Assembly (NCBI GenBank): GCA_964225545.1
Contig: CAXQPB010000198.1
Location: forward strand, 39,452 to 103,451
Direction of reading: 5' to 3'
Length of the DNA: 64,000 nucleotides
Source of the DNA: Nitrosopumilus sp.
Lineage (GTDB): Bacteria > Desulfobacterota > Binatia > UBA1149 > SPBQ01
Made by a program: the position numbers and the translations under genes. Positions 3,367 through 61,807 of this stretch are shown here, in pieces (within the stretch, counting starts at the first letter, position 1; each line of letters opens with the position of its first letter). The notes under the pieces are model-generated. The model was not told the DNA's origin, searched no databases, and saw only the letters and a list, made by a program, of their open reading frames with translations.

Positions 3367-3371
3367 AAAAG

Positions 3372-27936: not shown

Positions 27937-28096
27937 GACGGGCTTTTTTTCAGCCCAGGAAAATCAGTGCAAGTGCTGTCTGTGTCGGATACGACTCGTG
28001 GTGGCGTCGAACCCGAACATGGACTAAAACGATGTATGCCGGTTTGCCCGCCTGATCCTTCTGCACAAGGGGCGCCCGGTCTGGAGGGATCGCTTC

Positions 28097-30769: not shown

Positions 30770-30774
30770 CTTTT

Positions 30775-31563
30775 CTAATCTCCCTTTTTGCTGTTCTCGT
30801 GAGTTGCGTTGATCGCCGCGTCGAGAAACGCGGGACGCTCACCGCCGCCGTGCAGCAGCAGGTCCGCGCCGCTGACATAGGACGCCAGCGGTGAGGCCAG
30901 AAACAGACATGCGTCGCCGACGTCGTCAGGCTCGGCGAGCCGCCCGAGTGGAACGGTCGCCGAGACAGCGGCGATTCCGTCGTCGTCGCCGTAATGCAGG
31001 TGGGCCTGCTCGGTCTTCACCATTCCCGCCGTGACCGCGGTGACGCGCACCTTGGGCGCCCATTCGACCGCGAGGCTCTGCGTGAGGCTCAGCAGACCGG
31101 CCTTCGCGGCGCCGTATGCAGCCGTCCCCGGCGATGGCCTCACCGCGCTGACGCTCGCGATATTGATTATGACGCCGCCGCTTTCCTGTGACTGCATGAC
31201 CGCATTGGCCCGCTGCGCGAAGGTGAGCGGCGCGATCAGATTGAGCTGGATGATCTTCTCCGAGAAGCGCGGTGAAGCCGTTGCGGCTTCGGCAAACGGC
31301 GCTCCACCGGCATTGTTGACCAGCACGTCGAGTCGCCCGTGGCGTTCGACGGTAGCTTTGACCACAGCGGCGACCTGCTCGGGGTCTCGTACGTCGGCGG
31401 CCACGAAGGACGCGCGGCGGTTCGCGACAGCCGGAAGCTCGTCGGGTTCGTGGCGGCCGCAGATCACCACATCGGCGCCGTGTTCGAGAAAGCGGCGCGT
31501 GATACCGCGGCCGACGCCGCGCGCGCCGCCCGTAACGACGACGGCTTTGCCTGAAAAATCCAT
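30775..31563 (-). CDS. Mirror copy of SDR (2578..3366)
   Basis: Identical translation. Confidence 0.75.
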   Translation of the reverse strand: MDFSGKAVVVTGGARGVGRGITRRFLEHGADVVICGRHEPDELPAVANRRASFVAADVRDPEQVAAVVKATVERHGRLDVLVNNAGGAPFAEAATASPRFSEKIIQLNLIAPLTFAQRANAVMQSQESGGVIINIASVSAVRPSPGTAAYGAAKAGLLSLTQSLAVEWAPKVRVTAVTAGMVKTEQAHLHYGDDDGIAAVSATVPLGRLAEPDDVGDACLFLASPLASYVSGADLLLHGGGERPAFLDAAINATHENSKKGD

Positions 31564-31777
31564 GGGGTCGGAGGATCGCATCGGGGGTCGACCGCTTTGA
31601 CGGTCGGCGACGGAGCATAGGTGCCAGGCGACGTGGTCGCAACTGCCCGCCATGCAGACTGTCCTGTCCCCGTCCAGTCCCTGTCCTCTCGCTGCCTTGC
31701 CGCTGCCTCGTCGAGCGCGTATCGCAACCGGGCACGCAGGGGCCGTTCCGGCGAGCACAACCCGAGGAGGAACGATC

Positions 31778-32626
31778 ATGCTGGATCGCGATACGATCAT
31801 GTTGGAAGGAAGCACTGCCGTCGTCACCGGCGCCGGTGCCGGGATCGGGCGTGCGGTCGCCGAGAGCCTCGCCGCGCATGGTGCCTCGGTCGCCGTTGTA
31901 GACAGCGTTCCGCAACGCTCCGCCGAGGTCGCGCGCGCGATCGAAGAGCGCGGGGGCAGGGCGCTCGACGCTCCCGCGGACGTACGTGAGCGCGAAGACG
32001 TCGATCGTCTCCGTGATCGCGTCCTCGCCGAGCTCGGCGCGCCCGATATTCTGGTCAACAATGTCGGCCATTATCTCTCGGCGGGCCGCTTCGTCGATTC
32101 CCGCCACGAGGACTGGGACGCTCTGTATCGGGTGAACCTGGATCACGTCCTGACCTGCACGCACGCGTTGCTGCCTGCGATGATCGATGCCGGTCGCGGC
32201 GGCAGCATCGTCAACGTGACTACGATCGAGGCGTTTCGCGGTATACCGGGCTGCGCCGTCTACTCGGCTTTCAAGTCGGCGATCACCGGTTTCACCCGCA
32301 GCCTGGCGCTCGAGCTCGGCCCCGAGGGGATTCGTGTCAACGCGGTGGCTCCCGAGACGACCGAAACCGAGCAGGTACAGCCCAGCCGCTGGATCCCCGC
32401 CGAGCATCGTGACCGGGAACCGTACTGGATCCCCGCAGGCCGCTTCGGTCGCCCCGACGACATCGCCGGCAGCGTGCTGTTCCTCGCTTCAAAGCTTTCG
32501 GCCTGGGTGACCGGAACAACGGTCCACGTCGACGGGGGTGCGCTTGCCGCAGGGGGATTCTATCGGGTGCCCGGTGGCGGCTGGACCAACACGCCGATTG
32601 TTACAGGCTCGGGCATTCCGGGCTGA
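31778..32626 (+). CDS. Mirror copy of SDR (1515..2363)
   Basis: Identical translation. Confidence 0.75.
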   Translation: MLDRDTIMLEGSTAVVTGAGAGIGRAVAESLAAHGASVAVVDSVPQRSAEVARAIEERGGRALDAPADVREREDVDRLRDRVLAELGAPDILVNNVGHYLSAGRFVDSRHEDWDALYRVNLDHVLTCTHALLPAMIDAGRGGSIVNVTTIEAFRGIPGCAVYSAFKSAITGFTRSLALELGPEGIRVNAVAPETTETEQVQPSRWIPAEHRDREPYWIPAGRFGRPDDIAGSVLFLASKLSAWVTGTTVHVDGGALAAGGFYRVPGGGWTNTPIVTGSGIPG

Positions 32627-32649
32627 GCGGGCTATACGGGTTGTAGGGG

Positions 32650-34071
32650 CTAGCGTGACAGCGCGCGGCCGACGTCCGGGATGGACGCCTTCACGCGAAT
32701 CTCGAAGGCGGAAAGCTCGGCGAGCATCTCGTCTGTGCGTTTCGGCGCCTCGTCGGCAAGGTTGTCGAGCTCGCCTGGGTCGTTGACGATGTCGTAGAGC
32801 TCGACACTCTCCGCGCTCTGGAAACCGCCCGGCGGAACCGAAAGCCGCGCGTCACGCGGTGTACCGGCCGTCGTGTGGATCAGTTTCCAGCGTCCACGCG
32901 AGACAGAGAAGGGGTAGTTCGCCCGCGCGCCGAACCCGAACAGTGAGCGTTCGGCATCGATTCTTCCGCCGGCCAGCGCGACCGCCAGGCTGCGTCCGTC
33001 GAAGGCCTGCGGCGATGCTTCGAGACCGAGCAGCTCGACCAGCGTCGGGACGACGTCGATGGTTCCCACCGGCTCGCGGACGACCGCCCCCTCGGGCAGG
33101 CTGCCGGGCAGGGCGAAGAGCAGGGGGACGCGGACGGTCGAGTCGTAAATGAACCAACCGTGCTGGAGGTACTCGCGATGCCCCGTCAGGCTCTCGCCGT
33201 GGTCGGCGCTCAATACGACGAGCGTGCGGCGATGCAGCCGGCGTTCGCGCAGCGCCCGCATCAGCCGGCCGAGATGGTGATCGGTGTAGCGAATCTCCCC
33301 GTCGTATCGGCGCACATAATAGGAAAGCCGGTCGTGATCGTCGATCTGCTGGTAGCGCGGAATGACTCCGAGTCCGTAGTTGCCGATGGCGAGCCGTACC
33401 GCGGCGTCCTCGCCGAACCGACCGTCGGGATACTCGAAATCCTTGCTCCAATCCGGACCCGCGGATGTGAACGGGCCGTGCGGGTCCATCAGGTGCAGCC
33501 AGAGGAACCACGGGCGGCCGGCGTCGGCGGCGTCGGTTTCGCGTCCTTCGATCCACTCGATCGCGCGCGACACTCCCACCTCGTCGGATGCCTCCTCGGC
33601 GTTCTCGGTCCAGAAACCATGGAAGGAGTCGAAGCCCTGCGCGAAACCGAACCTGGCAGCCAGCAGACGATTGCCGACCAGCGCACCCGTCCGGTAGCCC
33701 GCGCGTGATGCGAGCTCGGCGATGGTGGTCGCCTCCGGCGAGAGCGGGACGACGTTGTGCCACGCGCCGTGGCGGTCGGCGTATCGCCCGGTGAGCAGCG
33801 AGGCGGTTCCGGGAGCGGTCTCCGACGCGGGCGACAGTGCGCGCTCGAAACGGACTCCTGTCGCCGCGAGCTCATCGATCATCGGGCTGGTCGGTTGGTC
33901 GTAGCCCCATGCACCGAGATGATCGGCTCGCAGCGTGTCGATCGAGACGATCAACAGGTTCGGCGGGTTGCCCTCCGGCGTTCTGAGCGGCAGCTCAGCG
34001 CTGTCGCGCGAACAGCCGCCGAGGGTCAGCGTGGTCAGGAAGGTCAGCAGGGGGAGCATGCGAGGCATCAT
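32650..34071 (-). CDS. Mirror copy of the sulfatase-like lipoprotein (70..1491)
   Basis: Identical translation. The 706-aa ORF 32650..34770 is this gene plus a spurious upstream in-frame extension; the real start is MMPRMLPLL (signal peptide + lipobox). Confidence 0.7.
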   Translation of the reverse strand: MMPRMLPLLTFLTTLTLGGCSRDSAELPLRTPEGNPPNLLIVSIDTLRADHLGAWGYDQPTSPMIDELAATGVRFERALSPASETAPGTASLLTGRYADRHGAWHNVVPLSPEATTIAELASRAGYRTGALVGNRLLAARFGFAQGFDSFHGFWTENAEEASDEVGVSRAIEWIEGRETDAADAGRPWFLWLHLMDPHGPFTSAGPDWSKDFEYPDGRFGEDAAVRLAIGNYGLGVIPRYQQIDDHDRLSYYVRRYDGEIRYTDHHLGRLMRALRERRLHRRTLVVLSADHGESLTGHREYLQHGWFIYDSTVRVPLLFALPGSLPEGAVVREPVGTIDVVPTLVELLGLEASPQAFDGRSLAVALAGGRIDAERSLFGFGARANYPFSVSRGRWKLIHTTAGTPRDARLSVPPGGFQSAESVELYDIVNDPGELDNLADEAPKRTDEMLAELSAFEIRVKASIPDVGRALSR

Positions 34072-34214
34072 GTTCCTGCCCGGCAGTGCGAACCGGCCCG
34101 TCGCCTTCGAGTGGCTTCCGGCCCCGGCGGCCCGTGGTGACGGTTCGCACCGCGCTGCCGGCGGTTCCGCGCTGTACCCCGCGCAGGCCCCTCGGCTGTC
34201 GTCCGGCGAGAGGA

Positions 34215-41729: not shown

Positions 41730-42100
41730 GCCCGTTCCTCCGTGCGTGATGGGAGCAGACAAAGCAGGTGCCATGCCGTGTGCCTGGCATGGATTAAGTG
41801 CTTGAAATCACTGGAACTTGCTGAAGCAGGCGGGTTCGATCGAGGTACATCGGCGAGCGCGTTCGTACATTGTCGCGCGTGCCGATGCCCTCACGCGCAG
41901 TTCATCTCTTCGGTCAATGACCGTACGAGGAAAAAGCGCGCGTACGTTCGAGATCTGGTTCTGTGAAGAGCCTTCGCGCTGCTCTCCCGTTGCGGTTGCC
42001 CGAGTGCTAGGCTCGCGTCGTCGCGGCGTTTCGCGCGCCCGCGCAGGCTGGTGCCTGCGGCCGGGCTTTTTCGGGACCGCATTCGCCGCCGGAGGTAACC

Positions 42101-42988
42101 ATGGCTACAGCAACGAACGCAGGGACACTGTCAGTCACCCGTCTTTCCGGCTCACTCGGGGCGGAGATCCGCGGCGTCAAACTGGTGGAGGCGACACCCG
42201 ATGACGTCGAAACCTTCCGCAAGCTGTTGCTCGAACACCTGGTGATCTTTTTTCCGGATCAGACCCTGACTCCGGACGAGCACATCGCGTTCGGACGTAT
42301 GTTCGGTGAGCTCGAGGCGCACCCCAACCTCATGTTCGCCGGTGAGCGGCCCGAGTTCTTCGAGCTGCACGCCGAGGGAGGGCAGGGGGCGATCGCCGAC
42401 GAGTGGCACAGCGATCTCACCTGTCAGGCCGAGCCCTCGGTCATGGCGATCCTGCACATGGTCAAGTGCCCGGAGGTCGGCGGCGATACGATGTGGGCCA
42501 ACATGTACAAGGCCTACGACGGGCTCTCACCGGCGATGAAGGAATTCTGCGAAGGGCTGTCCGCGCTGCACGATGCGGATCCCCACGGAGATGCCGATAA
42601 GACCGCGATTCATCCGGTCGTTCGCGTGCATCCGGAGACCGGCAGAAAATCGCTCTTCGTCAACGAGCACTTCACGCGCCGTATTGTCGAACTCAGCCAC
42701 GCCGAGAGCCGTGCTCTGCTCTCGTACCTGACCTCATGGGCATCCAGCCCGCAGTTCTCCGTCCGCTACCGCTGGACGCGCGGAACCGTCGCGATCTGGG
42801 ACAATCGTTGCACGCAGCACTGCGTTCTGAACGACTTCGAAGGGGAGCGAGTGATCCAGCGCGTCACGGTCATGGGCGACCGGCCGCAGGCGGCATCGCC
42901 GCCGCGCTGGGAGCCGCGGCTGCTGCCGCTCAGCGCGTCCAGTCGTCACGACCGCCAGCTCTTCGAGCATCTGCACGACGACCAGTAG
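42101..42988 (+). CDS. TauD/TfdA-family Fe(II)/2-oxoglutarate-dependent dioxygenase
   Basis: 295 aa. TauD-like signature: WHSD (HxD iron ligands), second His near VHPETG..., C-terminal R in WDNRCTQH. Confidence 0.75.
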   Translation: MATATNAGTLSVTRLSGSLGAEIRGVKLVEATPDDVETFRKLLLEHLVIFFPDQTLTPDEHIAFGRMFGELEAHPNLMFAGERPEFFELHAEGGQGAIADEWHSDLTCQAEPSVMAILHMVKCPEVGGDTMWANMYKAYDGLSPAMKEFCEGLSALHDADPHGDADKTAIHPVVRVHPETGRKSLFVNEHFTRRIVELSHAESRALLSYLTSWASSPQFSVRYRWTRGTVAIWDNRCTQHCVLNDFEGERVIQRVTVMGDRPQAASPPRWEPRLLPLSASSRHDRQLFEHLHDDQ

Positions 42989-43002: not shown

Positions 43003-44154
43003 CTACAGCCGCTCGATGATCGTCACATTGGCCTGACCGCCGCCCTCGCACATCGTCTGCAGCCCCCAGCGTCCGCCGGTCCGCTCCAGCTCGTTGAGCA
43101 GGGTCGCCATCAGGCGTGTGCCGGTCGCTCCGATCGGGTGACCGAGCGCGATCGCTCCGCCGTTCACGTTGACCTTCGAAAGGTCGGCGCCGGTCTCCTT
43201 CTGCCAGGCGAGCACAACCGGGGCGAAGGCCTCGTTGATCTCGACCAGATCGATCTGATCGAGAGTCATCCCTGTCTTCTCCAGTGCCCAGGCCGTCGCC
43301 GGAATCGGAGCGGTCAGCATATAGATCGGATCGTCGGCGCGAACGCTCATGTGGTGGATGCGCGCGCGTGGCTTCAAGCCGTGCTGTTTCACCGCGCCCT
43401 CTGACGCGATCAGCATGGCCGTCGCTCCGTCCGAAATCTGGCTGGCGACGGCTGCGGTGAGCCGGCCGCCTTCGGACAGCGGCTTGAGCTTCTGCATCCG
43501 CTCGATCGACGTATCGCGTCGCGGCCCTTCGTCGAAGTCGAGCTCGCCGTAGGGGAGAATTTCGTTCTTGAAGCGCCCCTCGTCGGTGGCGCGGATCGCG
43601 CGCTGGTGGCTTTCGAACGCGAACGCCTCCATCTCGTCACGGGTGATGTCCCACTTCTCGGCGATCATCTCCGCGCCGCGAAACTGCGAGACCTCCTGCG
43701 TGCCGAAGCGTTCGACCCAGCCTTTCGAACCGGAGAACGGGTCGGTGAAACCGAGAGGCTCGGCCAGCGTCATCGCCGACGAGATCGGGATCTGACTCAT
43801 GTTCTGCACGCCGCCGGCGACCACCAGATCGCTGGTGCCGCTCATCACGGCCTGCGATGCGAAGTGCACCGCCTGCTGCGAGGATCCGCACTGGCGGTCG
43901 ATGGTTACTCCGGGGACGTGCTGCGGCAGCCCGGCGGCCAGCCAGCAGGTGCGCGCGATGTCACCGGCCTGCGGGCCGATGGTGTCGCAGCAGCCGAAGA
44001 TCACGTCCTCGACCGCACCCGCGTCGACGCCGGTGCGTTCGACCAGGCCCTTGAGGACGTGTGCTCCGAGGTCAGCCGAGTGCTCACCGGCAAGTCCGCC
44101 GCCTCTGCGGCCGACCGGAGTGCGGACCGCGTCGATGATGTATGCCTCTGCCAT
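43003..44154 (-). CDS. Thiolase (acetyl-CoA C-acyltransferase)
   Basis: 383 aa. Thiolase N-terminus IIDAVRTPVGRRGG, QCGSSQQA active-site Cys region, C-terminal GGGQA motif. Confidence 0.85.
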   Translation of the reverse strand: MAEAYIIDAVRTPVGRRGGGLAGEHSADLGAHVLKGLVERTGVDAGAVEDVIFGCCDTIGPQAGDIARTCWLAAGLPQHVPGVTIDRQCGSSQQAVHFASQAVMSGTSDLVVAGGVQNMSQIPISSAMTLAEPLGFTDPFSGSKGWVERFGTQEVSQFRGAEMIAEKWDITRDEMEAFAFESHQRAIRATDEGRFKNEILPYGELDFDEGPRRDTSIERMQKLKPLSEGGRLTAAVASQISDGATAMLIASEGAVKQHGLKPRARIHHMSVRADDPIYMLTAPIPATAWALEKTGMTLDQIDLVEINEAFAPVVLAWQKETGADLSKVNVNGGAIALGHPIGATGTRLMATLLNELERTGGRWGLQTMCEGGGQANVTIIERL

Positions 44155-44205
44155 GTTATTGCTCTCCGTGGGTCTCTGTTCTGGTTGACTGCCTTGTGTC
44201 GGGAA

Positions 44206-45405
44206 TCAGCGTGTGACGACGACCGAGGATCCGTGTCCGAACAGCCCCTGGTTGACGCTGACGCCCGCGCGCGCTCCCTCGACCTGCCGGTCGCCGGCCC
44301 GCCCCTGGATCTGCCACGTGAGTTCACAGACCTGCGCGATCGCTTGCGCGGGGATCGCCTCTCCGAAGCAGGCGAGCCCGCCGCTGGGATTGACCGGGCA
44401 GCGGCCGCCGATCGTCGTCTCACCGTCGCGGAGCAGCTTCTCCGCATCGCCGGGTTCGCACAGCCCGATGTTCTCGTACCAGTCGAGCTCCAGTGCCGTG
44501 GACAGGTCGTAGACCTCGGCCAGGTTCATGTCCTCCGGACCCAGCCCGGACTGCTCGTAGGCGGCCCTGGTGATCGAGTCGCGGAACGGCGTATCGGGCA
44601 GACCCACCGCGGCAGCCGAATCGGTCGCGAAGTTCGGCATCTCGATGACATCGTTGGGATAGGTCGGCGTCACGGTCGAGACGGCGGCGATCTTCACGGG
44701 GTCGGTGGTGTGCTTGCGCGCGAACTCCATGCTCGAAAGCACGATCGCTGCGCCGCCATCACTGGTCGCGCAGATGTCGAGCAGACGCAGCGGGTCGGAC
44801 ACGACCGGCGACTTGCCGAAGTCCTCTTCGGTGACCTCTTTTCGATATCGGGCGTTCTCGTTTTTCAGACCGTGGCGAGCGTTCTTGATCTTCACGCGCG
44901 CGAAGTCTTCCGCGGTTGCCCCGTACATTTCCATGCGGCGGCGAGCGTACAGCCCGAAGTAGATCGGGTTGGTCGCACCGATGAGATGAAACCGCAGCCA
45001 GTCGGGGTCCTGCGTGCGTTTGCCGCCGGTCGGCGCAAAGAAGCCCTTCGGTGTCGTGTCGGCGCCGACGACGAGCGCGGTGTCGCACATGCCGGCGAGG
45101 ATCATCGCGCGCGCGGTGTTGATCGCCTGCGTGCCGCTGGCGCACGCGCCGTACGAGCTGGCGACCGGCGCGCCGGTCCAGCCGAGCGCCTGCGAGAACG
45201 TCGCGCCGGCGACATAGCCGGGGTAGCCGTTGCGGATCGTGTCGCCACCGGCGACGAAGCCGATGTCTTTCCACTCCAGGCCCGCGTCATCGAGGGCCTG
45301 GTTGGCTGCGTGAATGCCGTACTCGACGAAGTTGCGTCCCCACTTTCCCCAGGGGTGCATACCGACGCCGAGGACCGCGACCTGCTTGTCCGTACCGTTG
45401 CTCAA
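44206..45405 (-). CDS. SCP-x-type thiolase-fold lipid-transfer protein (Ltp2-like)
   Basis: 399 aa thiolase fold lacking the classical thiolase catalytic signature. Resembles nsLTP/SCP-x thiolases that partner with DUF35 proteins. Confidence 0.75.
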   Translation of the reverse strand: MSNGTDKQVAVLGVGMHPWGKWGRNFVEYGIHAANQALDDAGLEWKDIGFVAGGDTIRNGYPGYVAGATFSQALGWTGAPVASSYGACASGTQAINTARAMILAGMCDTALVVGADTTPKGFFAPTGGKRTQDPDWLRFHLIGATNPIYFGLYARRRMEMYGATAEDFARVKIKNARHGLKNENARYRKEVTEEDFGKSPVVSDPLRLLDICATSDGGAAIVLSSMEFARKHTTDPVKIAAVSTVTPTYPNDVIEMPNFATDSAAAVGLPDTPFRDSITRAAYEQSGLGPEDMNLAEVYDLSTALELDWYENIGLCEPGDAEKLLRDGETTIGGRCPVNPSGGLACFGEAIPAQAIAQVCELTWQIQGRAGDRQVEGARAGVSVNQGLFGHGSSVVVTR

Positions 45406-45418
45406 CAGATCTGTCTCC

Positions 45419-45856
45419 TCAGCCCGCGCTCGGGCGCCACTTCCAGACCAGATACTCGTTCTCGTCGTCCTCGTACAGAGCGTCGATCACCAGCTCCATC
45501 TTCATGCCCGCCGATAGATCAGCGATCGATACATCGGAGCTGACCTGGCCGAGGACAACCATCTTCTCGAGATCCAGCTCGACGGCCGCGACAATGTACG
45601 GTTCGAACGGGTCGGGCGCCACGTAGGGAGCCGGCGGCGGATAGCGGTTGTCGGTGAACGACCACAGCGTGCCGGTGCGGCTGAGCGGGATCTCTTCGAA
45701 GTCGTTGCCGCGACAGGCGGGGTTGCGGCAGAAATACGTCTCCCGCGGAAAGAAGTAACTGCCGCAGCTCTTGCAGCGGGTGCCGATGAGATGAGCGATC
45801 TCGCCGTCGGCGACGAACCAGCCGTCGATCGCAGGGACTTTTTTCTTCTGACTCAT
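45419..45856 (-). CDS. DUF35 OB-fold/zinc-ribbon protein (ChsH2 C-terminal-domain-like partner of SCP-x thiolase)
   Basis: 145 aa. Cys4 rubredoxin-like zinc ribbon (CKSCGSYFFPRETYFCRNPAC) followed by an OB-fold. Classic genomic pairing with the SCP-x thiolase 14 nt downstream. Confidence 0.8.
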   Translation of the reverse strand: MSQKKKVPAIDGWFVADGEIAHLIGTRCKSCGSYFFPRETYFCRNPACRGNDFEEIPLSRTGTLWSFTDNRYPPPAPYVAPDPFEPYIVAAVELDLEKMVVLGQVSSDVSIADLSAGMKMELVIDALYEDDENEYLVWKWRPSAG

Positions 45857-45875
45857 TTCTCTCGCTTCTTTCCGT

Positions 45876-46940
45876 TCACGCTTGTGTCGTGCCGACTGCC
45901 TCGAAACCGAACGAGGGGCCTCCGCGCTCGCGCAGAACGGCGTCCGCTACCCGGCGTCGATGATACAGCCGGCTGCCCCAGCTCGACTCGAGGGCCCACG
46001 CGCGCTTCATCCACAGATGCAGGTCGACCTCCCAGGTGTACCCGATCGCACCATGTACCTGGAGCGCGGTTTTCGCCGCTGCGCATGCGGCTTCATCGGC
46101 CATTGCCTTTGCCTGGGAGACATCGATCGTCCGATTCGGAGAGTCTGTCGCGATCGAATGCGCGGCCCGGTAGACCATCGGTCGGGCGAACTCGAGCTTC
46201 ACTGCCACGTTGGCCAGGTGATGCTTGATCGCCTGGAACGAACCGATCGGCTTCCCGAACTGATGACGATCTTTCGCATAGTCAACGGCGAGCTCGATCA
46301 GCCGGGCAGTGATGCCGAGCTGCTGGGCCGCGATTGCGAGGGCCGCGCGATCGGCGGCTCGTTGCATCATCGCCTGGGCCTCGTCTCCCGACGCCACGGT
46401 CGTCGCGTCTCCGGTAATCTCGAAGGTGTACAGCCGTCGCGACGGATCGCTGGTGGGCTGTCGCTCGGTTTTCAACGCCGCTCGTTCGACGGCGGCGATC
46501 TCGCCTGCGCGTTCGATCAGAACAAGATCCGCATCGCCGGCATCGGCGACTGCCGGATTGATGTGACCCGCCACCGTGACGACCGCTTCTCCGCTCGCGA
46601 TCGCAGGAAGCCAGCGACCCGCGAGCTCCTCGTTGCCGCACTCGGCGAGCAGCGGAGCCGCCACCGCGGCGGTCTCGACGACCGGCTCGGGGAGGGCGAC
46701 GCGCCCGGTCTCCTCGAGCGGAAGTAGGAGGTCGAGCTCGTTCATGCCGAGTCCGCCGTGCGATTCGGGCACCAGCACGCCGAGCAGGCCCGACGAGGCC
46801 AGCGCCGCCCAGCGCTCCGTCGAGCGGCCGCGCTCGTCGTCCCACAGCGCGCGGATCGACTCCGGCGTGCAGTGCTTCTCGAGCAGCGGCCGCAAGCTGT
46901 CGCGGAAAAGGTTCTGATCTTCGGTGAACGTGAACTGCAT
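45876..46940 (-). CDS. Acyl-CoA dehydrogenase family protein (short FadE-type, likely subunit of a heteromeric ACAD)
   Basis: Start MQFTFTEDQNLF, typical ACAD N-terminus. C-terminus ...LQVHGAIGYTWEVDLHLWMKRAWALE. 354 aa. An alternative GTG at 46970 would overlap the upstream gene. Confidence 0.7.
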   Translation of the reverse strand: MQFTFTEDQNLFRDSLRPLLEKHCTPESIRALWDDERGRSTERWAALASSGLLGVLVPESHGGLGMNELDLLLPLEETGRVALPEPVVETAAVAAPLLAECGNEELAGRWLPAIASGEAVVTVAGHINPAVADAGDADLVLIERAGEIAAVERAALKTERQPTSDPSRRLYTFEITGDATTVASGDEAQAMMQRAADRAALAIAAQQLGITARLIELAVDYAKDRHQFGKPIGSFQAIKHHLANVAVKLEFARPMVYRAAHSIATDSPNRTIDVSQAKAMADEAACAAAKTALQVHGAIGYTWEVDLHLWMKRAWALESSWGSRLYHRRRVADAVLRERGGPSFGFEAVGTTQA

Positions 46941-46944
46941 CGAC

Positions 46945-48108
46945 TCAGGCCCGTGGGAGTCCCAGCACACGCTCGGCGATCACGTTGCGCTGGATCTCGT
47001 TGGTGCCGGCGTAGATGGGACCGGCCAGGGAGAACAGAAAGCCATCGAGCCAGCCGCCGACGTCGCCGGCCGCGCTCGCGTGCGGCAGAAGCTCGGCCCG
47101 TGATTCGAGGATGGCGAGCGCGGTCTCGTGCATGCTGAGGTCGAGTTCGGACCAGAAGATCTTGTTCAGGCTGGCCTCGGCACCGATCGACCCACCCTGC
47201 ATCAGCCGTGAGGCGGTCTGATAGGTGTTCAGGCAATACGCCTCCGCGCCCATCCACGCGCGCGCGACCGCATCGCGCAGGGAGGGGTCGGCCTCATCGG
47301 CATGACGCCGGTACAACTCGACCAGCCGCGCCGCCGTCGCCTGAAAACGCGCCGGGCTGCGCAGCATCAGCCCGCGCTCGAAGCCCGCCGTCGCCATCGC
47401 CACCGACCAGCCTTTGTCACGCTCGCCGAGCTGGTTCTCGATCGGAACGCGGACCTCGTCGAAGAAGATCTCCGCGAAGCCGGTCTCGCCGTCGAGCTGG
47501 GAGATCGGGCGAACGGTGATGCCGTCGAGGTCGAGGGGGACGAGAATGAAGGTCAACCCGCGATGACGCTCGGAGTCCGGGTCGGTACGGAACATGCCGA
47601 ACAGCCAGTCGGCGAACGCGGCACGTGAAGCCCAGGTCTTCTGGCCATTGAGAACGAAGTGGTCGCCGTCGATACGGGCGCTGGCGCGGATGGCTGCCAT
47701 ATCGCTGCCGGCGTTGGGTTCGGACCAGCCCTGCGCCCAGATCTCCTCGCCCGATGCCATGCGCGGGAGGAACCGGGCTTTCTGCTCGGCGGTGCCGTAT
47801 TCCATCAAAGTCGGTCCGAGCAGGAAGATTCCGTTCTGATTCACGCGGCCCGGTGAGCCGGCTCGCCAGTACTCCTCCTCGAAGATCAGCCACTCGATCA
47901 GATTGGCACCGCGACCGCCGTACTCCTCCGGCCAGTTGACCATTCCCCAGCGCCCCTCGTTCAGTTTCGCTTCCCATACGCGGTGGGCAGCGAAGCCTTC
48001 GGCGGTGTCCATCGAAGGCAGAGGGTCGCTCGGTACGTTCTTTGCGAGCCATTCGCGTGCTTCCGAGCGCAGCGCCCGGTGCTCCGGTGTGTAACTGAGA
48101 TCGATCAC
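46945..48108 (-). CDS. Acyl-CoA dehydrogenase family protein; YEGT-type motif reads YAGT
   Basis: 387 aa. GTG start overlapping the stop of the upstream hydratase (GTGA). C-terminal IYAGTNEIQRNVIAERVLG. Confidence 0.75.
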   Translation of the reverse strand: MIDLSYTPEHRALRSEAREWLAKNVPSDPLPSMDTAEGFAAHRVWEAKLNEGRWGMVNWPEEYGGRGANLIEWLIFEEEYWRAGSPGRVNQNGIFLLGPTLMEYGTAEQKARFLPRMASGEEIWAQGWSEPNAGSDMAAIRASARIDGDHFVLNGQKTWASRAAFADWLFGMFRTDPDSERHRGLTFILVPLDLDGITVRPISQLDGETGFAEIFFDEVRVPIENQLGERDKGWSVAMATAGFERGLMLRSPARFQATAARLVELYRRHADEADPSLRDAVARAWMGAEAYCLNTYQTASRLMQGGSIGAEASLNKIFWSELDLSMHETALAILESRAELLPHASAAGDVGGWLDGFLFSLAGPIYAGTNEIQRNVIAERVLGLPRA

Positions 48109-48853
48109 TTCTTGCCCGAAAAGTCCGCGTCGCGTTTCTCGACGAATGCGTCCCGGGCCTCCTGGGAGTCCGGCGACGTGTACAGCTCGAGGGTAAAGCC
48201 CTGCTCGAAACGGTAACTGCGCTTGACGTCCAGCAGCTCGATCCCGTCGAGCGACTCTTTGGCGAGCCGCAGGGCCTTGCCGCTCTTCGATGCGATCTTT
48301 GCGGCCAGCTCGCGCGCTTCGGCAGCGAGGCGGTCGGCCGGCACCACCGATTCGATGGAGCCGTGACGATAGGCCTCGGCGGCGCTGATCGGTTCGCCGG
48401 TGTAGAGCATGCGACGGACCTTCTGCATCGGGAACATTCGATAGAGGTGAGAGGCGGCCCCGAGCGCGCCACGGTCGATCTCCGGCAATCCGAAGCTGGC
48501 GTCCTCGGAGGCGAGAATGATGTCGGCCGAGCCCGCCATGCCGATACCGCCACCGAGACAGAAGCCGTGAACGGCAACGATGACCGGGACCTTGCAGTCG
48601 TGGATGGCCGCGAAGGTGTCGTAGCAGCCTTTGTTGACGCGGGTGATCCGGCTGCCGTCGGCCTGCAGCTCCTTGATGTCGACGCCCGCGCAGAACCCGC
48701 GGCCCTCGGCTCGGATCAGCAGGCAGTTGACGTTCTCATCGCGGCCGGTCTCGTCGATGGTGCGCGCGAGGTCGAACCACCCGGCGCTGTCAAAAGCGTT
48801 TACCGGCGGGTGATCGAGAACGAGTTCGGCGATGCGGTCTGCGGTCGTGACAG
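48105..48853 (-). CDS. Enoyl-CoA hydratase (crotonase; EchA20-like by size and context)
   Basis: Crotonase signature (LIRAEGRGFCAGVDIKEL ... VAVHGFCLGGGIGMAGSADI). Start inferred as TTG at 48853 with AGAGGAA RBS. The upstream part of ORF 48105..49472 overlaps the hydrolase gene in another frame and is discounted. Confidence 0.65.
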
Positions 48854-48904
48854 TGAATGGCAAGGCGTTTCCTCTCGGGAATCGTCGGCGGCCGACGCGT
48901 TGAA

Positions 48905-48970
48905 TAGAACGTGTTTCACTATCAAGAGGGCGGCGCTTGGTAAAGGAGCCGCCACGCTCAGCGTGCGGCC
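48905..48970 (-). promoter_or_regulatory. Copy B of a ~65-nt repeated intergenic element containing a KstR-type palindrome TAGAACGTGTTTCA (48905..48918), upstream of the enoyl-CoA hydratase gene
   Basis: Fits the TnnAACnnGTTnnA consensus of TetR-family KstR operators. Also shares CTTGGTAAAG and GCGTGCGGC blocks with copy A. On the coding strand it gives TTTACC-N17-GATAGT, a possible promoter. Confidence 0.4.
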
Positions 48971-50424
48971 TCGCGTATGCGGTCCTCGACGTAGGCGAAG
49001 AACGGGTTGTGGCGAAGGCGCATCGCGAGATCGAGAGGGATGCTCGCCACGCCGCGCTCGCCGCGCAGGTCGAGTGAGCCGATCGGCGGGAACGGCCGCA
49101 CGGCGCTGCGGTCGCGGTGGGCGCCGTAGACCGGATCGTCGGGCGGGAAGGGGACGGCGACATGGGAGAGCGAATAGACCGCCTGCGGCCACGCCAGGTC
49201 GAGTGGTTGTTCCGTCCACTCGGTGCTCCCGGCTGCGCGTCTTTGCGCGACCACTTCGGCGCTGTCCGGTGCCGTGTTCGTGACCAGAGTGAAGGCGTAA
49301 TCGGCCTCGGTGCTCGACACGATGCCTTCGAGATAGGCGAGGTTGCCGGCGCGGATGAAATCGATGGCTTCGGTCCTGCGGTTGATGTCGAACAGGACCA
49401 CCTCCGAGCCGTTGCGACCGAGGTTCTCCACCAGCCGGACCACTGAGTCGGGCGGCACGGTGGCATCGACAACGGAGCCGAAAGAGAGCAGCGGCGGGAA
49501 TCGAGTTCGCTGCTCGACGCTCAGCCGTTCGAGGCGCGTACGAATCTTCCCGGTCAGCCGGTAGATCTGCCGGCCGGCGTTGACCGGAAACGAGTTGTAC
49601 TTGTACGGATCGTATTCGGGCAGGATGTCGATCCATGCCAGCTTCTCCAGGCCCGGTATGGCCGCCATCCACAGCTGCACGCGCGCCAGCGCCGCGAGCG
49701 GCGATACCGTCAGGGCCGGCGAGAGCAGGATGAGCCGGTCGGGGATGCGTCCTCGCCCGTGGTCGATCACGCGCAGGCTGTGATCGACGGCGAGCGCGGC
49801 GCCGTTGGAGTAACCGGCGATGAAAAATCGGGCGGAATCGCCTGCGGCGTTCTCGCTGACCTCGACGACGTGTTCGGCGGCCAGCCGGCCGGTCTCGCGC
49901 CCGTCCCGGACGTCGATCTCGGTCAGCGCGCCCGGCATCGTCCCGTGGCCGGGGACGCGCAGACCGACGACGTAGTAGCCCTGGTCGACGAGGATCTGCC
50001 CGACGGATCGCAGCGAATACGGCGAATCGCTCAGCCCGTGGAGCAGCAGCGCGCCGCCGCGGATCTCCTCCGGTCGCAGGATGTACGTGCGGTTCCAGTT
50101 GCGGGCGCGACCGCGCGGGCTTGATCGGCTGCCCGGGCTGAAGCGATCAAAGACTGCCGCGAGACCGCTGCGTGCATTCTCCTGCTCGAGAGCGGCCAGC
50201 TCCTCGAACAGCCCGTTTTCGTAATCGAGGTAGCTTTCGAAGTCGGCGTCGGAGTCGTCGGCGTCGAACTCGAAGGGCAGCGCGTCGCTGTGCCAGAACT
50301 TGACGTCCGGCATGCCACGGGCCTGGAGGATGTGGGTCGTCAGGAGCGTCACGCTGCCGCCGAAGACCGTGGCGAGGATCAGCCGTCCGACGGATCTCAG
50401 TGCACGGCTTGCCGTCTCGCGCAT
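48958..50424 (-). CDS. Membrane-anchored alpha/beta hydrolase
   Basis: 488 aa. N-terminal TM. GYSNGA nucleophile elbow (GxSxG). Confidence 0.6.
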   Translation of the reverse strand: MRETASRALRSVGRLILATVFGGSVTLLTTHILQARGMPDVKFWHSDALPFEFDADDSDADFESYLDYENGLFEELAALEQENARSGLAAVFDRFSPGSRSSPRGRARNWNRTYILRPEEIRGGALLLHGLSDSPYSLRSVGQILVDQGYYVVGLRVPGHGTMPGALTEIDVRDGRETGRLAAEHVVEVSENAAGDSARFFIAGYSNGAALAVDHSLRVIDHGRGRIPDRLILLSPALTVSPLAALARVQLWMAAIPGLEKLAWIDILPEYDPYKYNSFPVNAGRQIYRLTGKIRTRLERLSVEQRTRFPPLLSFGSVVDATVPPDSVVRLVENLGRNGSEVVLFDINRRTEAIDFIRAGNLAYLEGIVSSTEADYAFTLVTNTAPDSAEVVAQRRAAGSTEWTEQPLDLAWPQAVYSLSHVAVPFPPDDPVYGAHRDRSAVRPFPPIGSLDLRGERGVASIPLDLAMRLRHNPFFAYVEDRIREAAR

Positions 50425-50433
50425 CGCCGTACG

Positions 50434-51495
50434 TCAGGCGGTCGCGGCGACCGCCGAGAGTCGCTGCTCGGCTTCGTCGGCGATTCGCGCGACGAGCTCC
50501 GCGCAGCTGGGCAGGTCATCGATCACGCCGGTGACCTGGCCGCTCGGCAGCACGCCTTCGGATGGATGCCCCTCGACCATCGCGCGCTGGATGAAGATCG
50601 GAGAGTTCGCCGCCATCAGCGTCTGCGTGCGCGTCAGCCTCTCGTTGCGTTGCATCGAGATTGCCGCGCCGAGCAGCTCGGAGATCGTAGCGCCGCTCAT
50701 ACGGCGGTATTCCAGCCCGCTCATCAGCGCGCGCCACAGCCGTGTCAGCGGGTTCCCCGTCTCGAGCTTGCGCAGGAACTCGTTGACAACCACGCGGTGG
50801 GGGAGTCCGTCGACTTCCTCGGTCACCCGCGTGTCGAGCACCGAGGCCTGCAGGTAGCGCTCGAGGGTCGGGCGGGGGACCGGGCTGTCCGAGGTCAGCA
50901 GGAAGCGAGTGCCCATGGCGATACCCGCGGCGCCCCAGGTGATCGCAGCCGCCAACCCGCGTCCATCGTGGAAACCGCCCGCTGCGGCCACCGGCACGTC
51001 GACCGCATCGAGGACCTGCGGCAAAAGCAACGAAGTCGGGACCGAGCCCGTGTGTCCTCCGCCTTCGCCGCCCTGACAGACGATCATGTCCGCGCCGAGC
51101 TCGACGGCTTTGACCGCATGCTTCACCTGGCCGACGGTCGGCACGCACAGCACGCCCGCGGCCTTGAACTTCTCGACGTAGCTCTTCTTCGGCGAGCGGC
51201 TGTAGCTGGCTGCCTTCACGCCGTAACGGACGACGAGGTCGGCGATGTCGTCGGCGCCGGGCTGCTCCATCAGGAAGTTGACGCCGAAGGGGCGGTCGGT
51301 CAGTTCCTTGACGCGAACGATCGCGCGCTCGGCCTCCGCGGGACGCAGGACCGCACAGGCGAGAAAGCCCATCGCTCCCGCGTTGGCGGTGGCGGCGACC
51401 AGCTCCGGTGTCGCGACCCATCCCATCGCCGTCTGGATGATCGGGTAGCGGACTCCGAAACGCTCACTGAGTTCGGTCTGCAGGGCAGGGTGCAT
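50434..51495 (-). CDS. Nitronate monooxygenase (NMO) / enoyl-reductase family FMN TIM-barrel protein (IpdC-like by context)
   Basis: 353 aa. YPIIQTAMGWVATPELVAA N-terminus typical of the NMO family. Gly-rich FMN-binding block GGEGGGHTG. Confidence 0.75.
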   Translation of the reverse strand: MHPALQTELSERFGVRYPIIQTAMGWVATPELVAATANAGAMGFLACAVLRPAEAERAIVRVKELTDRPFGVNFLMEQPGADDIADLVVRYGVKAASYSRSPKKSYVEKFKAAGVLCVPTVGQVKHAVKAVELGADMIVCQGGEGGGHTGSVPTSLLLPQVLDAVDVPVAAAGGFHDGRGLAAAITWGAAGIAMGTRFLLTSDSPVPRPTLERYLQASVLDTRVTEEVDGLPHRVVVNEFLRKLETGNPLTRLWRALMSGLEYRRMSGATISELLGAAISMQRNERLTRTQTLMAANSPIFIQRAMVEGHPSEGVLPSGQVTGVIDDLPSCAELVARIADEAEQRLSAVAATA

Positions 51496-51513
51496 ACGCG
51501 CGTCCGCTCCTGT

Positions 51514-52287
51514 TCAGCGCGCGGCGAACACCGAAGCGCGCTGGTCGTGCGGGTCGAGTACGCCGCGGATGATCTCCAGCTGTTCAGCCGTCGGCGCCGG
51601 CGTCTCGCCGCAGTCTTCGGCGACCGCGAGCTCGAAGCCGGTGTTCTCGCGGACCTCCTCGAGCGTCGTCCCCGGGTGGACCGAGACAACGCGCATCGTG
51701 TGGTCCGGTCCGCCGAAATCGAGCACCGCCAGGTTCGATATGACCCGGCGCAGCTCCATCAGGTCGCTGCGCACGCCCTTGGGCCATCGCGCGGCCTCGT
51801 AGCCGACGCCTGAGGACATATCGACTTTGCCGACGAACGTCCGCGCCGTGTGCGAAGGCACGAAGAAGCTGCACGGATGGTTGATCGTATTGCCGGGGAT
51901 GCCGCGTACGCCGAGCAACTGGACCTTGGGTTTCGCGTGGTCGCCGATCACGCTGATGTTCGAACTGCCGAAGCGGTCAATCTGCGTCGGCATCGTCATC
52001 GCATGACGTTTGCCGCTCCAGAGCAGGTCGAACACTCTGCGGAACGGCAGCCACCCCTCGATCTTGAGCGCGTCGTCTCCGCGCGGGCCGACCGGGATCG
52101 GCTCTGAGACCAGCCGACACTCACCGTCGTTGAGCAGCAGGTCGGGGCTGAAGCTCAGCCGCGCCAGGCCTGCACCCAGGCGTGGGATCAGCCCCATGCC
52201 CGACGCGAGGATCTCACCGTCGCCGCGCCACGCCTCGGCGCACGCGGCGATACAGAGTTCAGCGTGTGTGTAGTGACCGTGATCCAT
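51514..52287 (-). CDS. CoA-transferase family I subunit B (IpdB-like)
   Basis: 257 aa. Sequence pattern of the 3-oxoacid/glutaconate CoA-transferase beta subunit. Start overlaps the subunit A stop by 1 nt (TGATG). Confidence 0.7.
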   Translation of the reverse strand: MDHGHYTHAELCIAACAEAWRGDGEILASGMGLIPRLGAGLARLSFSPDLLLNDGECRLVSEPIPVGPRGDDALKIEGWLPFRRVFDLLWSGKRHAMTMPTQIDRFGSSNISVIGDHAKPKVQLLGVRGIPGNTINHPCSFFVPSHTARTFVGKVDMSSGVGYEAARWPKGVRSDLMELRRVISNLAVLDFGGPDHTMRVVSVHPGTTLEEVRENTGFELAVAEDCGETPAPTAEQLEIIRGVLDPHDQRASVFAAR

Positions 52288-53153
52288 CAGAACACCGGTG
52301 CCGGGAGTGCGGAGATGCGGTCACCGCCGCCGACCGCGTCGAGATACGCGGTCTCGTCGACGTCCACATACTCTTTCCAGTACGCGGCACGCGCCTCGTC
52401 GTCCTTCGCCGCTGCCGAGTACGTCTTCAGGTGATCGAGGTCGATGCCGTATGCAGGAACACAGGCGGTCGGATGCGCGCCGAACGGAGTCTCGACCACG
52501 CCGTCGGTCAGCGTGCGGTTGAGGACGAGCGACTGCAGCGGGCCGAGCCGTGTGAGCTCTTCGGTTTCGACGATGCGCTCGCAGCTTACGAAACGCTTTT
52601 TCGCGGCCCCGCAGAACAGATCGTCGAAGTACGGGTCGGGGCCGAGGATCTGACCGTTACCGCGCTCGTCGGCATGATCGACGTGGACGAGCGCCGCGTC
52701 GAGCTCGAGCGCCGGCATGGCGAGCAACACCTCGCCGTCCTCATACGGAGACGTGACGGTGCGGATCTCCGGGTTGAGCTGCTGCACGTCGCAGCCGAGC
52801 CCGGCCCGGGTCGGCAGGAACGGCAGCCGGATCATCGCTGCGCGCAGACCCCACTGCAGCATTCCCTCGTCGATCTCCATGACCTCGAGCCGGCCGGCCT
52901 GCCGCGCCGCCCTGAAGTGGGCATCGAGCGGGATCAGGTCGAGGGAGACGAAGCCGAACACCAGCTTGCGCACTTTGCCGGCCGCGCACAGCAGGCCGAC
53001 ATCGGGGCCACCGTACGAGACCAGTGTGAGGTCCTTCAGGGACGATCGCGCGATCTCCCGAATCAGGGCCATCGGCTTGCGGCGTGCGCCCCAACCGCCG
53101 ATGCCGAGAGTCATGCCGTCGGCGAGTTGGCCGACGACGTCGGCTGCTGTCAT
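52287..53153 (-). CDS. CoA-transferase family I subunit A (IpdA-like)
   Basis: Start MTAADVVGQLADGMTLGIGGWG (CoA-transferase alpha N-terminus). 288 aa. The longer ORF to 53495 is a spurious extension. Confidence 0.7.
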   Translation of the reverse strand: MTAADVVGQLADGMTLGIGGWGARRKPMALIREIARSSLKDLTLVSYGGPDVGLLCAAGKVRKLVFGFVSLDLIPLDAHFRAARQAGRLEVMEIDEGMLQWGLRAAMIRLPFLPTRAGLGCDVQQLNPEIRTVTSPYEDGEVLLAMPALELDAALVHVDHADERGNGQILGPDPYFDDLFCGAAKKRFVSCERIVETEELTRLGPLQSLVLNRTLTDGVVETPFGAHPTACVPAYGIDLDHLKTYSAAAKDDEARAAYWKEYVDVDETAYLDAVGGGDRISALPAPVF

Positions 53154-53233
53154 GCGTTTGTTCACCCGATGGAACCCTTCCGGATCGACCGACACTCCGG
53201 CTGTACATCGGAGCGGGAGCGCGATCGCAGCAG

Positions 53234-53300
53234 TGGAACGCGTTCTATTAGCAAGGCGCGGGGCTTTGGTAAAGCCGGTGCCGCGCGGCGTGCGGCTGTC
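53234..53300 (-). promoter_or_regulatory. Copy A of the repeated element with KstR-type palindrome TGGAACGCGTTCTA (53234..53247), upstream of the IpdA-like gene
   Basis: About 75% identical to copy B over about 65 nt. GAACGCGTTC is a perfect 10-bp palindrome. On the coding strand it gives TTTACC-N17-TAATAG. Confidence 0.4.
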
Positions 53301-53493
53301 GGCAGCGAGTAGACCGGCGGAAACCGTCTTCGGATCCACCGCAGGCGGCGATCGTGAGGCCGTGTCGTCATTTCGCGTTTGCGCGACTCCTGCTAAGACC
53401 CGTGGCGGTGTCTCATCAAGTTCTGCTCTCGAACTTCGAGAAAGCAGCCGACGCCGTTGCAGCGCGCGACGGCGACCGGACGGGAAGCACGGC

Positions 53494-53700
53494 ATGACAG
53501 GCTCACGGGTTTTGCGTCGATCTGAACACGGAATGATCGCAGGCGTCTGCGCGGGGATCGCCGAGTACCTCGGCTGGCCGCCATCTCGTGTGCGCCTGGT
53601 TTACGTCGTGGTTTCGCTGGCAAGCGTGGCCTTCCCCGGCATGCTCGTGTACTGCGTGCTCTGGTTTCTGATGCCCGGGCCGTACGACCAGCGCGGCTGA
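53494..53700 (+). CDS. PspC-domain small membrane protein
   Basis: 68 aa. MIAGVCAGIAEYLGWPPSRVRLVYVVVSL matches the PspC-domain consensus, followed by a TM helix. Confidence 0.65.
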   Translation: MTGSRVLRRSEHGMIAGVCAGIAEYLGWPPSRVRLVYVVVSLASVAFPGMLVYCVLWFLMPGPYDQRG

Positions 53701-55847: not shown

Positions 55848-55954
55848 GACGATTTCTCCTGACCGGCCGATCGGCGGTCGTTGCGGTGGGCGAGAGATAC
55901 TATCACGCATCGGCCGGGACAAGCCTGCGACGCTGCGCTACGCTCCGGGCCCCT

Positions 55955-61032: not shown

Positions 61033-61190
61033 GCCGGGCTCGGCGCCCGAGGCGTCGCACGGCGTCGATACCGCGCCCTCTCGCTGCACGCGGTTACGCA
61101 CAGACGTCGCCGCAGTCACTACGCGCCGGACCCCCACGCTGGACAATTTTGAGCCGGTGTTCCTCGCCGCGCGTTGCCGCGCAGAAAAAC

Positions 61191-61209
61191 AAAAACGTTT
61201 TTGATCAAA
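61191..61209 (+). promoter_or_regulatory. AT-rich island with two overlapping perfect palindromes (AAAAACGTTTTT and TTTGATCAAA) upstream of the collagen-like gene
   Basis: Seen directly. Located about 45 nt upstream of the GAGGAGG RBS in an otherwise ~68% GC region. Confidence 0.3.
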
Positions 61210-61253
61210 GGTTTTCCGTTCTCGCTCGTCTGTTTGAAGAAGAGGAGGCGGAG

Positions 61254-61757
61254 TTGAGAGGGTCGGCAGTTGTCGCGGCGCTCGCACTTGTTCTCGCGAG
61301 TTCCGCTCTATTCCTGCTCGCACGCAGGCATTTCGTATTCCAGGGACCGCCGGGACCGGCAGGTCAGACCGGACCTCCGGGAGTCGCAGGCCCCGCAGGC
61401 CCCGCAGGCCCCGCGGGTCCGGCAGGGCCTCCGGGACCTCCGGGACCTCCGGGACCTCCGGGACTTGCGGCAGTTTCGGAGCATGCCGCTGATCCGATGG
61501 CCGGCGCGCCCACTGCGGCGTCGTCGGCACAGGGTGGTTCAGCGCGATTTTCCACATGCGTCCGCCGAGAGCGCGAACAGACCGAGGCTTCCGGCGATGG
61601 TCTGATCGTCGTACCCTGTCACGACGGGGAGACGGCGGTCTCGGCCGGCAGCACCGCCGAGGCGTACCAGATGTTTCCCAGCGCGGACTTGAGTTCGTGG
61701 TCTTTCCGGCTGGCAGACTGCTGCGCGAACGTGATGTACGTCGTCTGCTGCGGCTGA
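61254..61757 (+). CDS. Membrane-anchored collagen-like (Gly-X-Y) repeat protein with Cys-rich C-terminus ending CCG
   Basis: Putative TTG start with GAGGAGG RBS. N-terminal TM/signal anchor ([19 protein letters not shown]). 14 uninterrupted G-X-Y triplets ([42 protein letters not shown]) at 61344..61469. C-terminus ...[13 protein letters not shown]. Confidence 0.55.
61344..61469 (+). repeat. Collagen-like triplet repeat region with 9-nt tandem repeats (gcaggcccc x3, cctccggga x4)
   Basis: Direct reading of the sequence. Confidence 0.8.
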
Positions 61758-61807
61758 GCGGCGAGGTCGGGATGCGGTCAGGTTGAGGTTGAGGAGGCGG
61801 CCAGGCG

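Follow-up and report, generated by a model that had tools for sequence, protein, structure and literature searches.

In Mycobacterium and Rhodococcus, the operators of the TetR-family protein KstR (Rv3574) carry a 14-bp palindrome, TnnAACnnGTTnnA (Kendall et al., 2007; PMC1995591). Purified KstR attaches as a dimer to probes that carry this motif, which in mycobacteria overlaps the -10 region (PMC1995591). A different box, AnCAAGnnCTTGnT, belongs to the KstR2 (Rv3557c) regulon of Mycobacterium (Kendall et al., 2010; PMC3068626), and the effector of KstR2 is the coenzyme A (CoA) thioester HIP-CoA (PMC8700777). In Caenibius tardaugens, oestrogen degradation is under the TetR repressor EdcR (PMC8700777). 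Here we analyzed a 64-kb stretch of DNA (64,000 nucleotides; hereafter the window) from an uncultured Binatia lineage, in which two short elements with a KstR-type palindrome lie upstream of an ipdA-like gene and of an echA20-like hydratase gene in a steroid C/D-ring (HIP) catabolic cluster. Each element is probably a 41-bp promoter-operator module under the control of an unlinked, KstR-like repressor of the TetR type. The module itself, with its invariant positions and spacing, is real and conserved, and it appears to be a cis-regulatory unit which was duplicated to co-regulate the two halves of the HIP operon. The initial annotation of this DNA had likewise placed a KstR-type operator over a promoter and the gene of its regulator outside the window, and the comparative data supported this; protein binding is what we infer.

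Both promoter/operator-like elements were found at the coordinates given in that annotation. Both 14-mers (TAGAACGTGTTTCA, palindrome at 48905-48918, and TGGAACGCGTTCTA, palindrome at 53234-53247) fitted TnnAACnnGTTnnA, as had been claimed, and they were its only two matches in the whole window, versus 0.21 expected; one of 100 dinucleotide shuffles reached two. On the coding (minus) strand the unit reads C-TTTACC-N12-CTTG-n-TA-n-T-AG-AAC-NN-GTTC-n-A, and its TTTACC-N12-CTTGnTA part had just two occurrences, both on the minus strand (48920-48944 and 53249-53273), versus 0.00 expected. Copy 2 (P_ipdA; 53234-53274, minus strand; 41 nt, CTTTACCAAAGCCCCGCGCCTTGCTAATAGAACGCGTTCCA) heads the ipdA-ipdB-ipdC-hydrolase unit, 81 nt upstream of the ipdA ATG and inside a 340-nt divergent intergenic region. 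Its -35-like hexamer TTTACC (53268-53273, minus strand), the same in all ten box-bearing copies described below, is followed after 17 nt by an extended -10-like TGcTAATAG (53245-53253, minus strand; TG at 53252-53253, putative -10 hexamer at 53245-53250). The predicted palindromic operator (53234-53247; TAGAACGCGTTCCA on the coding strand), which again fits TnnAACnnGTTnnA, shares the final 3 nt of the -10-like hexamer and extends over the predicted start site (about 53237-53239). Copy 1 (internal, P_ech; 48905-48945, minus strand; 41 nt, CTTTACCAAGCGCCGCCCTCTTGATAGTGAAACACGTTCTA) has its -35-like TTTACC at 48939-48944 (minus strand), a putative extended -10, TGaTAGTGA, at 48916-48924 (minus strand) and a predicted palindromic operator at 48905-48918 (TGAAACACGTTCTA on the coding strand). 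It begins 13 nt past the stop codon of the hydrolase gene, its 3' end is 41 nt short of the TTG start of the hydratase gene, and it occupies the sole sizeable gap (94 nt) of a ten-gene co-directional array.

Several details of the initial annotation had to be revised. The two copies had been described as elements of about 65 nt with about 75% identity, and we obtained 70% with gaps over 65-67 nt (49 of 70 columns) and 28 of 41 positions in the ungapped core. The GCGTGCGGC tail counted as part of the element is, in copy 1, made of the last codons and the stop of the upstream hydrolase gene; it is not kept in the relatives, L091 among them. It is thus a chance match of coding sequence, which leaves a conserved unit of 41 nt instead of 65. 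The proposed spacing, TTTACC-N17 followed by TAATAG or GATAGT, held for copy 2, where TAATAG stands at N17; in copy 1 N17 leads to TAGTGA, and GATAGT is at N15. A third, weaker site at 41854-41867 is noise, with a best agreement of 7/12 to TAGAACnnGTTCTA when 17 other positions of the window score 9/12. Since the likeness of the two copies within the window is barely over the GC-rich background (local score 31, versus 26-29 for the best unrelated stretches), the case rests on the architecture of the motif and on its conservation across genomes.

Conservation of the palindrome in related genomes had been named as a test, and the palindrome was kept in ten module copies from eight loci (the window included) of Binatia-like relatives with IpdA 70-100% identical. 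The spacing was fixed in all of them, and in each case the gene immediately downstream was ipdA or the echA20-like hydratase gene. Two copies, one at each gene, were present in the window (IpdA 100%) and in L091 (89%). One copy upstream of ipdA was found in L092/L099 (82%), L094 (82%), L115 (77%) and the Binatia metagenome-assembled genome (MAG) L011 (70%), as well as in the fragment L100, and one copy upstream of the hydratase gene in the fragment L098, both fragments being listed without an IpdA identity. Common to the ten copies is C-TTTACC-N12-CTTG-n-TA-n-T..AAC..GTT..A, while the spacer and the flanks have diverged. Over the nine copies with full flanks, the mean information content was 1.44 bits for the 41-nt module, 1.57 for the palindrome, 0.85 for the 12-nt spacer and 0.5-0.6 for the 30-nt flanks. 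All ten palindromes (two in the window, eight in relatives) match TnnAACnnGTTnnA; positions 1, 4, 5, 6, 9, 10, 11 and 14 are invariant in 10/10, positions 2, 3, 7, 8, 12 and 13 vary, and the invariant positions are exactly those of the published KstR core. Furthermore, a metagenome-wide scan for the composite motif gave 11 matches. Three were in high-GC contigs, all at orthologous positions upstream of ipdA or the hydratase gene, and the other eight, in contigs of 30-42% GC, were due to chance. One 523-kb contig held a single copy of the module.

Three relatives, L110 (IpdA 77%), L111 (79%) and L116 (78%), have no palindrome but keep TTTAC[CG]-N14-TGnTA in place, with the -35-like hexamer as TTTACC or TTTACG, so the promoter core is separable from the operator. 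The 17-nt spacer, the TG and the TA were invariant in 13/13 orthologous upstream regions, and this conserved core would, judging from its layout, be a promoter signature of the extended -10 type; the palindrome itself appears to be an add-on of one sub-lineage. The internal copy was present where the hydratase gene is separated from ipdC, that is, in the window and L091, where the hydrolase gene lies between them, and in L098; it was missing where the two genes abut (L092, L011 and L115). We also considered a strict tie between the internal copy and the insertion of the hydrolase gene, which L098 refuted, its separating gene being read, by translation alone, as a luciferase-like monooxygenase. 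Among the hydratase copies, those of the window and L091 share CTCC before TTTACC and those of L091 and L098 have similar spacers; the duplication of the module is therefore old and has been maintained.

In the proposed arrangement, RNA polymerase would use the -35-like TTTACC, of which 4/6 positions match TTGACA, a free spacer of 17 nt and an extended -10 (TGnTAnnnn). Within the TTTACC-17 nt-TGnTAnnnn layout the palindrome sits at the 3' end of the -10 hexamer (TAnTAG|AAC...), so the 14-bp TnnAACnnGTTnnA would start within the hexamer and cover the start site. The start sites predicted from this layout, about 53237-53239 for copy 2 and about 48908-48910 for copy 1, should lie under the palindrome. 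The palindrome would be the target of a dimeric repressor whose gene lies at another place in the genome, most likely a TetR-family protein of KstR-like specificity; once bound, it would occlude the polymerase until a CoA thioester of the pathway (HIP-CoA or a neighbouring intermediate) released it. Copy 2 would then be the main promoter of ipdA-ipdB-ipdC-hydrolase and copy 1 a paralogous internal promoter for echA20-fadE-fadE-DUF35-thiolase-thiolase, so that the two halves of the steroid C/D-ring (HIP) pathway could answer to one regulator; read-through from copy 2 could also be stopped by repressor sitting at copy 1. Promoter function, start site, repression, regulator family and effector are all parts that we infer.

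Some observations weigh against this arrangement. The -10 hexamers (TAATAG, TAGTGA and TAGTAG) do not have the usual final T and their 3' half is poor, and a consensus promoter scan reported no sigma-70 site in the region. Rv3550-Rv3553, the mycobacterial orthologues, were derepressed in a Mycobacterium kstR2 mutant and belong to the KstR2 regulon with its different box (PMC3068626), and therefore a KstR-type box at these genes is not the textbook arrangement. In addition, no regulator was seen in the window, nor in the ±10 kb inspected in each of the Binatia-like relatives. As had been noted before, the 64 kb hold no TetR-family gene: a TetR_N hidden Markov model that we built from TetR and QacR seeds plus locus hits, limited to the domain, gave no match in any stop-to-stop open reading frame (ORF) of at least 90 aa in the window, and Pfam scans of the called genes and leftover ORFs of the window found no DNA-binding regulator. 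The only TetR gene adjacent to a box in a Gram-negative locus, that of the Myxococcota locus L051, is not KstR-like but generically TetR-like. It was also tried as a lead to the cognate regulator and dropped: its 71 homologues were without a Binatia label, and two of them (in L113 and L114) were without a box. We propose that the repressor is encoded elsewhere in the genome; it would be a KstR-like TetR repressor sensing a CoA thioester.

The palindrome could instead be the operator of a regulator unrelated to KstR, either of another TetR subfamily (e.g., a PsrA/FadR-like fatty-acyl sensor) or another helix-turn-helix protein, with a convergent AAC-N2-GTT core. AAC..GTT cores also occur in operators of other acyl-CoA-responsive TetR proteins, for example PsrA (GAAAC-N2-4-GTTTC), and this counts for such a regulator, as do the generic TetR character of the L051 protein and the fact that a KstR orthologue was not detected. 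However, the positions invariant among the ten copies are precisely those of the KstR core, actinobacterial steroid loci contain sites identical to the 14-mers, and the IpdA is as close to actinobacterial homologues (up to 70%) as to other Gram-negative ones, which is compatible with a regulatory logic transferred along with the genes. We consider a regulator of this kind possible but unlikely. A smaller chance is given to the view that TTTACC...CTTGnTAA is at the same time a second dyad operator, TTAnCAAG-N9-CTTGnTAA, with half-sites equal to those of KstR2, so that two repressors would be integrated at one promoter. The half-site AnCAAG/CTTGnT does fit the KstR2 motif (PMC3068626), L011 has a perfect 9+9 inverted repeat (TTACCAAGG-N7-CCTTGGTAA), and the four pairs of bases that are invariant in both arms among the ten copies are all complementary. 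However, the dyad has decayed in several copies (left arm TTACCGAG or TTACCGAA, right arm CTTGTTAT) and is lost in box-less relatives that keep TTTAC-N14-TGnTA (CCTG in L116, TTTACG in L110), and its centre-to-centre spacing of 15 bp is unfit for one TetR dimer. The window has no exact match to the KstR2 box AnCAAGnnCTTGnT, and its five one-mismatch matches (three unique, two mirrors due to the assembly artefact described below) lie elsewhere, 0/5 falling at either module. We therefore favour the promoter reading of TTTACC...CTTGnTAA over a second operator.

The alternative offered in the initial annotation was an RNA element. Read as a structured leader (a riboswitch or an attenuator) or as a hairpin of the terminator kind within the operon transcript, it was rejected as very improbable, even if a GC hairpin around TTTACC can be drawn in each copy of the window and copy 1 directly follows a stop codon. 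Rfam gave no match, neither at the gathering thresholds nor with E values up to 5, folding z-scores were between -0.9 and +0.3, and RNAalifold on nine copies returned 0 conserved pairs. Within the module, the spacer that would form the hairpin is the part conserved least, and beyond the 3' end of the palindrome, the point from which a leader would run, conservation ceases. Dozens of scattered copies, which would have pointed to an interspersed repeat of the repetitive extragenic palindrome (REP) or miniature inverted-repeat transposable element (MITE) kind, were looked for, and there were two copies in the window, or two in 47 kb of unique sequence, with the true metagenomic matches at orthologous positions only. 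The module is also kept across relatives when its flanks are not. Such a repeat, or a chance likeness in GC-rich DNA, would agree with the in-window score of 31 against a background of 26-29, but it is the least credible of all these explanations. Other known signals were discarded as well. A Cheo-type LexA (SOS) box needs GAAC-N4-GTTC and the sequence is GAAC-N2-GTTC; promoters of the sigma-54 and extracytoplasmic function (ECF) sigma types were ruled out on spacing, from the sequence itself.

The same type of box was also found in other phyla. In the Myxococcota MAG loci L036 (at 9199) and L072 (at 9182), TTGACC-N7-TGAAACnnGTTTCA precedes, by about 40 nt, a frame with a GTG start, which is itself about 0.8 kb upstream of ipdA; this unannotated frame was taken as the first gene of the ipdA operon. 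The two loci show a KstR-type box, with another promoter layout, in a second non-actinobacterial phylum. The 14-mer of copy 1 is identical to ones beside the ipdA clusters in the actinobacterial loci L041, L059, L062 and L065. An identical 14-mer is in the promoter of a KstR orthologue in actinobacterial L025 (E 1e-34 to KstR in PDB) and another is about 190 nt upstream of ipdA in L053. More generally, several Micromonosporaceae loci and L053 had KstR-type boxes around their ipdA clusters. In the Micromonosporaceae loci L041, L052, L059, L065 and L087, a KstR-type box, TAGAACGCGTTCTA, was immediately upstream of genes that score with the TetR profile. Only the TetR of L052 was inspected among these five, and it looks KstR2-like going by the residues GILSGSLYHHF..., which we take to be those of KstR2. 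The division between KstR and KstR2 regulons in these Micromonosporaceae may differ from the mycobacterial model.

The array downstream of the two modules is a steroid C/D-ring (HIP) catabolic cluster, and all its genes are on the minus strand. Transcription unit 1 (predicted; 48958-53153) comprises the genes for an ipdA-like CoA-transferase alpha subunit (52287-53153), an ipdB-like beta subunit (51514-52287), an ipdC-like NMO-family reductase (50434-51495) and an alpha/beta hydrolase of 488 aa (48958-50424), assigned by Pfam and gene calls. Transcription unit 2 (predicted; 43003-48863) is the distal part of the same array, with six genes from the hydratase to the last thiolase, assigned by Pfam: the echA20-like enoyl-CoA hydratase with a TTG start (48105-48863; NCBIfam PRK07938 above its cut-off), an acyl-CoA dehydrogenase (46945-48108), a small acyl-CoA dehydrogenase (45876-46940; its NCBIfam IpdE2 match was sub-threshold), a DUF35/ChsH2-like OB protein (45419-45856), an Ltp-type thiolase (44206-45405) and a thiolase (43003-44154). 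The modules hence adjoin lipid/steroid catabolic genes (ipdAB, ipdC, echA20-like, fadE-like and thiolase genes). The top PDB matches of IpdA and IpdB were 6CO6/6COJ/6CON, with E values of 7e-93 and 2e-73, respectively; we take these entries to be the IpdAB ring-cleaving hydrolase. An identical IpdA was present in three MAGs as well as on metagenomic contigs. The MAGs GCA_964230245.1, GCA_041245915.1 and GCA_964229185.1 carry this locus, and GCA_036445895.1 and GCA_964555245.1 are relatives; ERZ28772220 is one of the source samples. Of the homologues with a name, the closest (89% identity) was from 'Candidatus Binatia bacterium', and the best among GTDB species representatives, at 70%, came from Binatia and Myxococcales MAGs, with Actinobacteria close behind. 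The window also encodes cysteine-rich repeat proteins and DUF1329, in keeping with a Gram-negative-type lineage.

Divergent from ipdA there are a small PspC-domain gene (53494-53691, plus strand), an SDR gene, a thiolase gene and two acyl-CoA ligase genes. The intergenic region of copy 2 also holds a perfect 7+7 palindrome, TCTCGAACTTCGAGA, at 53427-53441, about 55 nt upstream of the PspC-domain gene, and this may be a separate operator. In the divergent promoter region between the fadA6-like thiolase and the fadD3-like ligase genes (55848-55954), only a short GATAcTATC dyad was seen and no KstR-type box was found, and therefore the fadD3-like ligase, the maker of the presumed CoA-thioester inducer, seems to be outside the control of the KstR-type box. 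The steroid-ring cluster is flanked by a sulfatase gene (32650-34149, minus strand) and a TauD/TfdA-family dioxygenase gene (42101-42988, plus strand); a sulfatase gene is also nearby in the relative L116, and this may hint at the use of sulfated sterols. Farther off, a non-coding stretch of about 520 nt with locally lower GC (29790-30310) lies between a DUF1330 gene and a MaoC-dehydratase gene. It contains a one-mismatch KstR2-like site, AACGAGCACTTGCT, at 30052, and searches of this stretch against Rfam and for tRNA gave no match.

As for the assembly, positions 1-34140 of the window form a perfect palindrome, whose arms (1-17070 and 17071-34140) complement each other at 100% and meet without a spacer. 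In an independent assembly, L106, the sequence beyond the centre leads into another SDR gene. The fold-back is at a natural 24-nt hairpin, GCCTTGGAGTCGCGACTCCAAGGC (17059-17082), where several short-read contigs break off. Positions 1-17070 are therefore a fold-back assembly artefact, and only 17071-64000 are unique. At about 61250-61760 (plus strand) there is a gene for a small predicted membrane-anchored protein with a collagen-like Gly-X-Y run (repeats at 61344-61480). Short-read contigs of the same organism end at about 61050-61410, probably because of this collagen-like repeat.

In the literature searched, we found no description of KstR-type control outside Actinobacteria, nor any of steroid catabolism or KstR-like control in Binatia. 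As a type of genetic switch the module is ordinary, with no earlier description from this phylum, and it offers a concrete, testable cis-element for the prediction of regulons in Binatia, a phylum without cultured representatives; in practice it is a predicted binding site without its regulator. It suggests that the regulatory logic of actinobacterial steroid catabolism (a palindrome over the -10 and a repressor sensing a CoA thioester) either crossed phyla with the ipdAB cluster or was re-invented, and that KstR (upper pathway) and KstR2 (HIP pathway) need not share out the control in other bacteria as they do in mycobacteria. It also suggests that an operon extended by an inserted gene can keep its co-regulation by duplicating the whole promoter-operator module. 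A far-reaching version would combine KstR-like control of steroid-nucleus catabolism beyond Actinobacteria (in Binatia and Myxococcota), a KstR-type rather than a KstR2 box at HIP/C-D-ring genes, and an embedded dyad of KstR2 half-sites set 9 bp apart, a non-canonical spacing; one compact promoter, duplicated within the operon, would then receive either two steroid-sensing repressors or a single one that binds in an unusual way. We regard this combination as rather improbable.

Compared with the operators of KstR, the elements described here have the same 14-bp palindrome with the same invariant positions, a predicted overlap with the -10, lipid/steroid catabolic genes downstream and several copies per genome. 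However, the host is an uncultured Gram-negative-type Binatia lineage and not an actinobacterium, and no kstR gene is linked in the window. The box of kstR itself is upstream of the -10 hexamer and overlaps it, whereas the box here is just downstream of the putative hexamer, with an overlap as well, and the genes concerned are C/D-ring (HIP) genes, which in mycobacteria are targets of KstR2. The element would work like a KstR operator and is a possible member of the KstR regulon proper. The likeness to the KstR2 regulon lies in the same gene set (echA20, ipdA, ipdB, ipdC, fadE genes and thiolase) and in the expected logic of a TetR repressor released by a CoA thioester. It is different in that the box AnCAAGnnCTTGnT is absent from both promoters, where only KstR2-like half-sites with the wrong spacing occur, and in that kstR2 is within the actinobacterial cluster, but here neither the cluster nor its vicinity holds a regulator. 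EdcR of C. tardaugens recognizes a different and longer palindrome (TnnCnnTACnAnTnGTAnnGnnA), is encoded inside its cluster and serves another segment of the pathway; nevertheless, it resembles the present case as a Gram-negative repressor of a steroid pathway whose palindrome lies over the -10 of two promoters.

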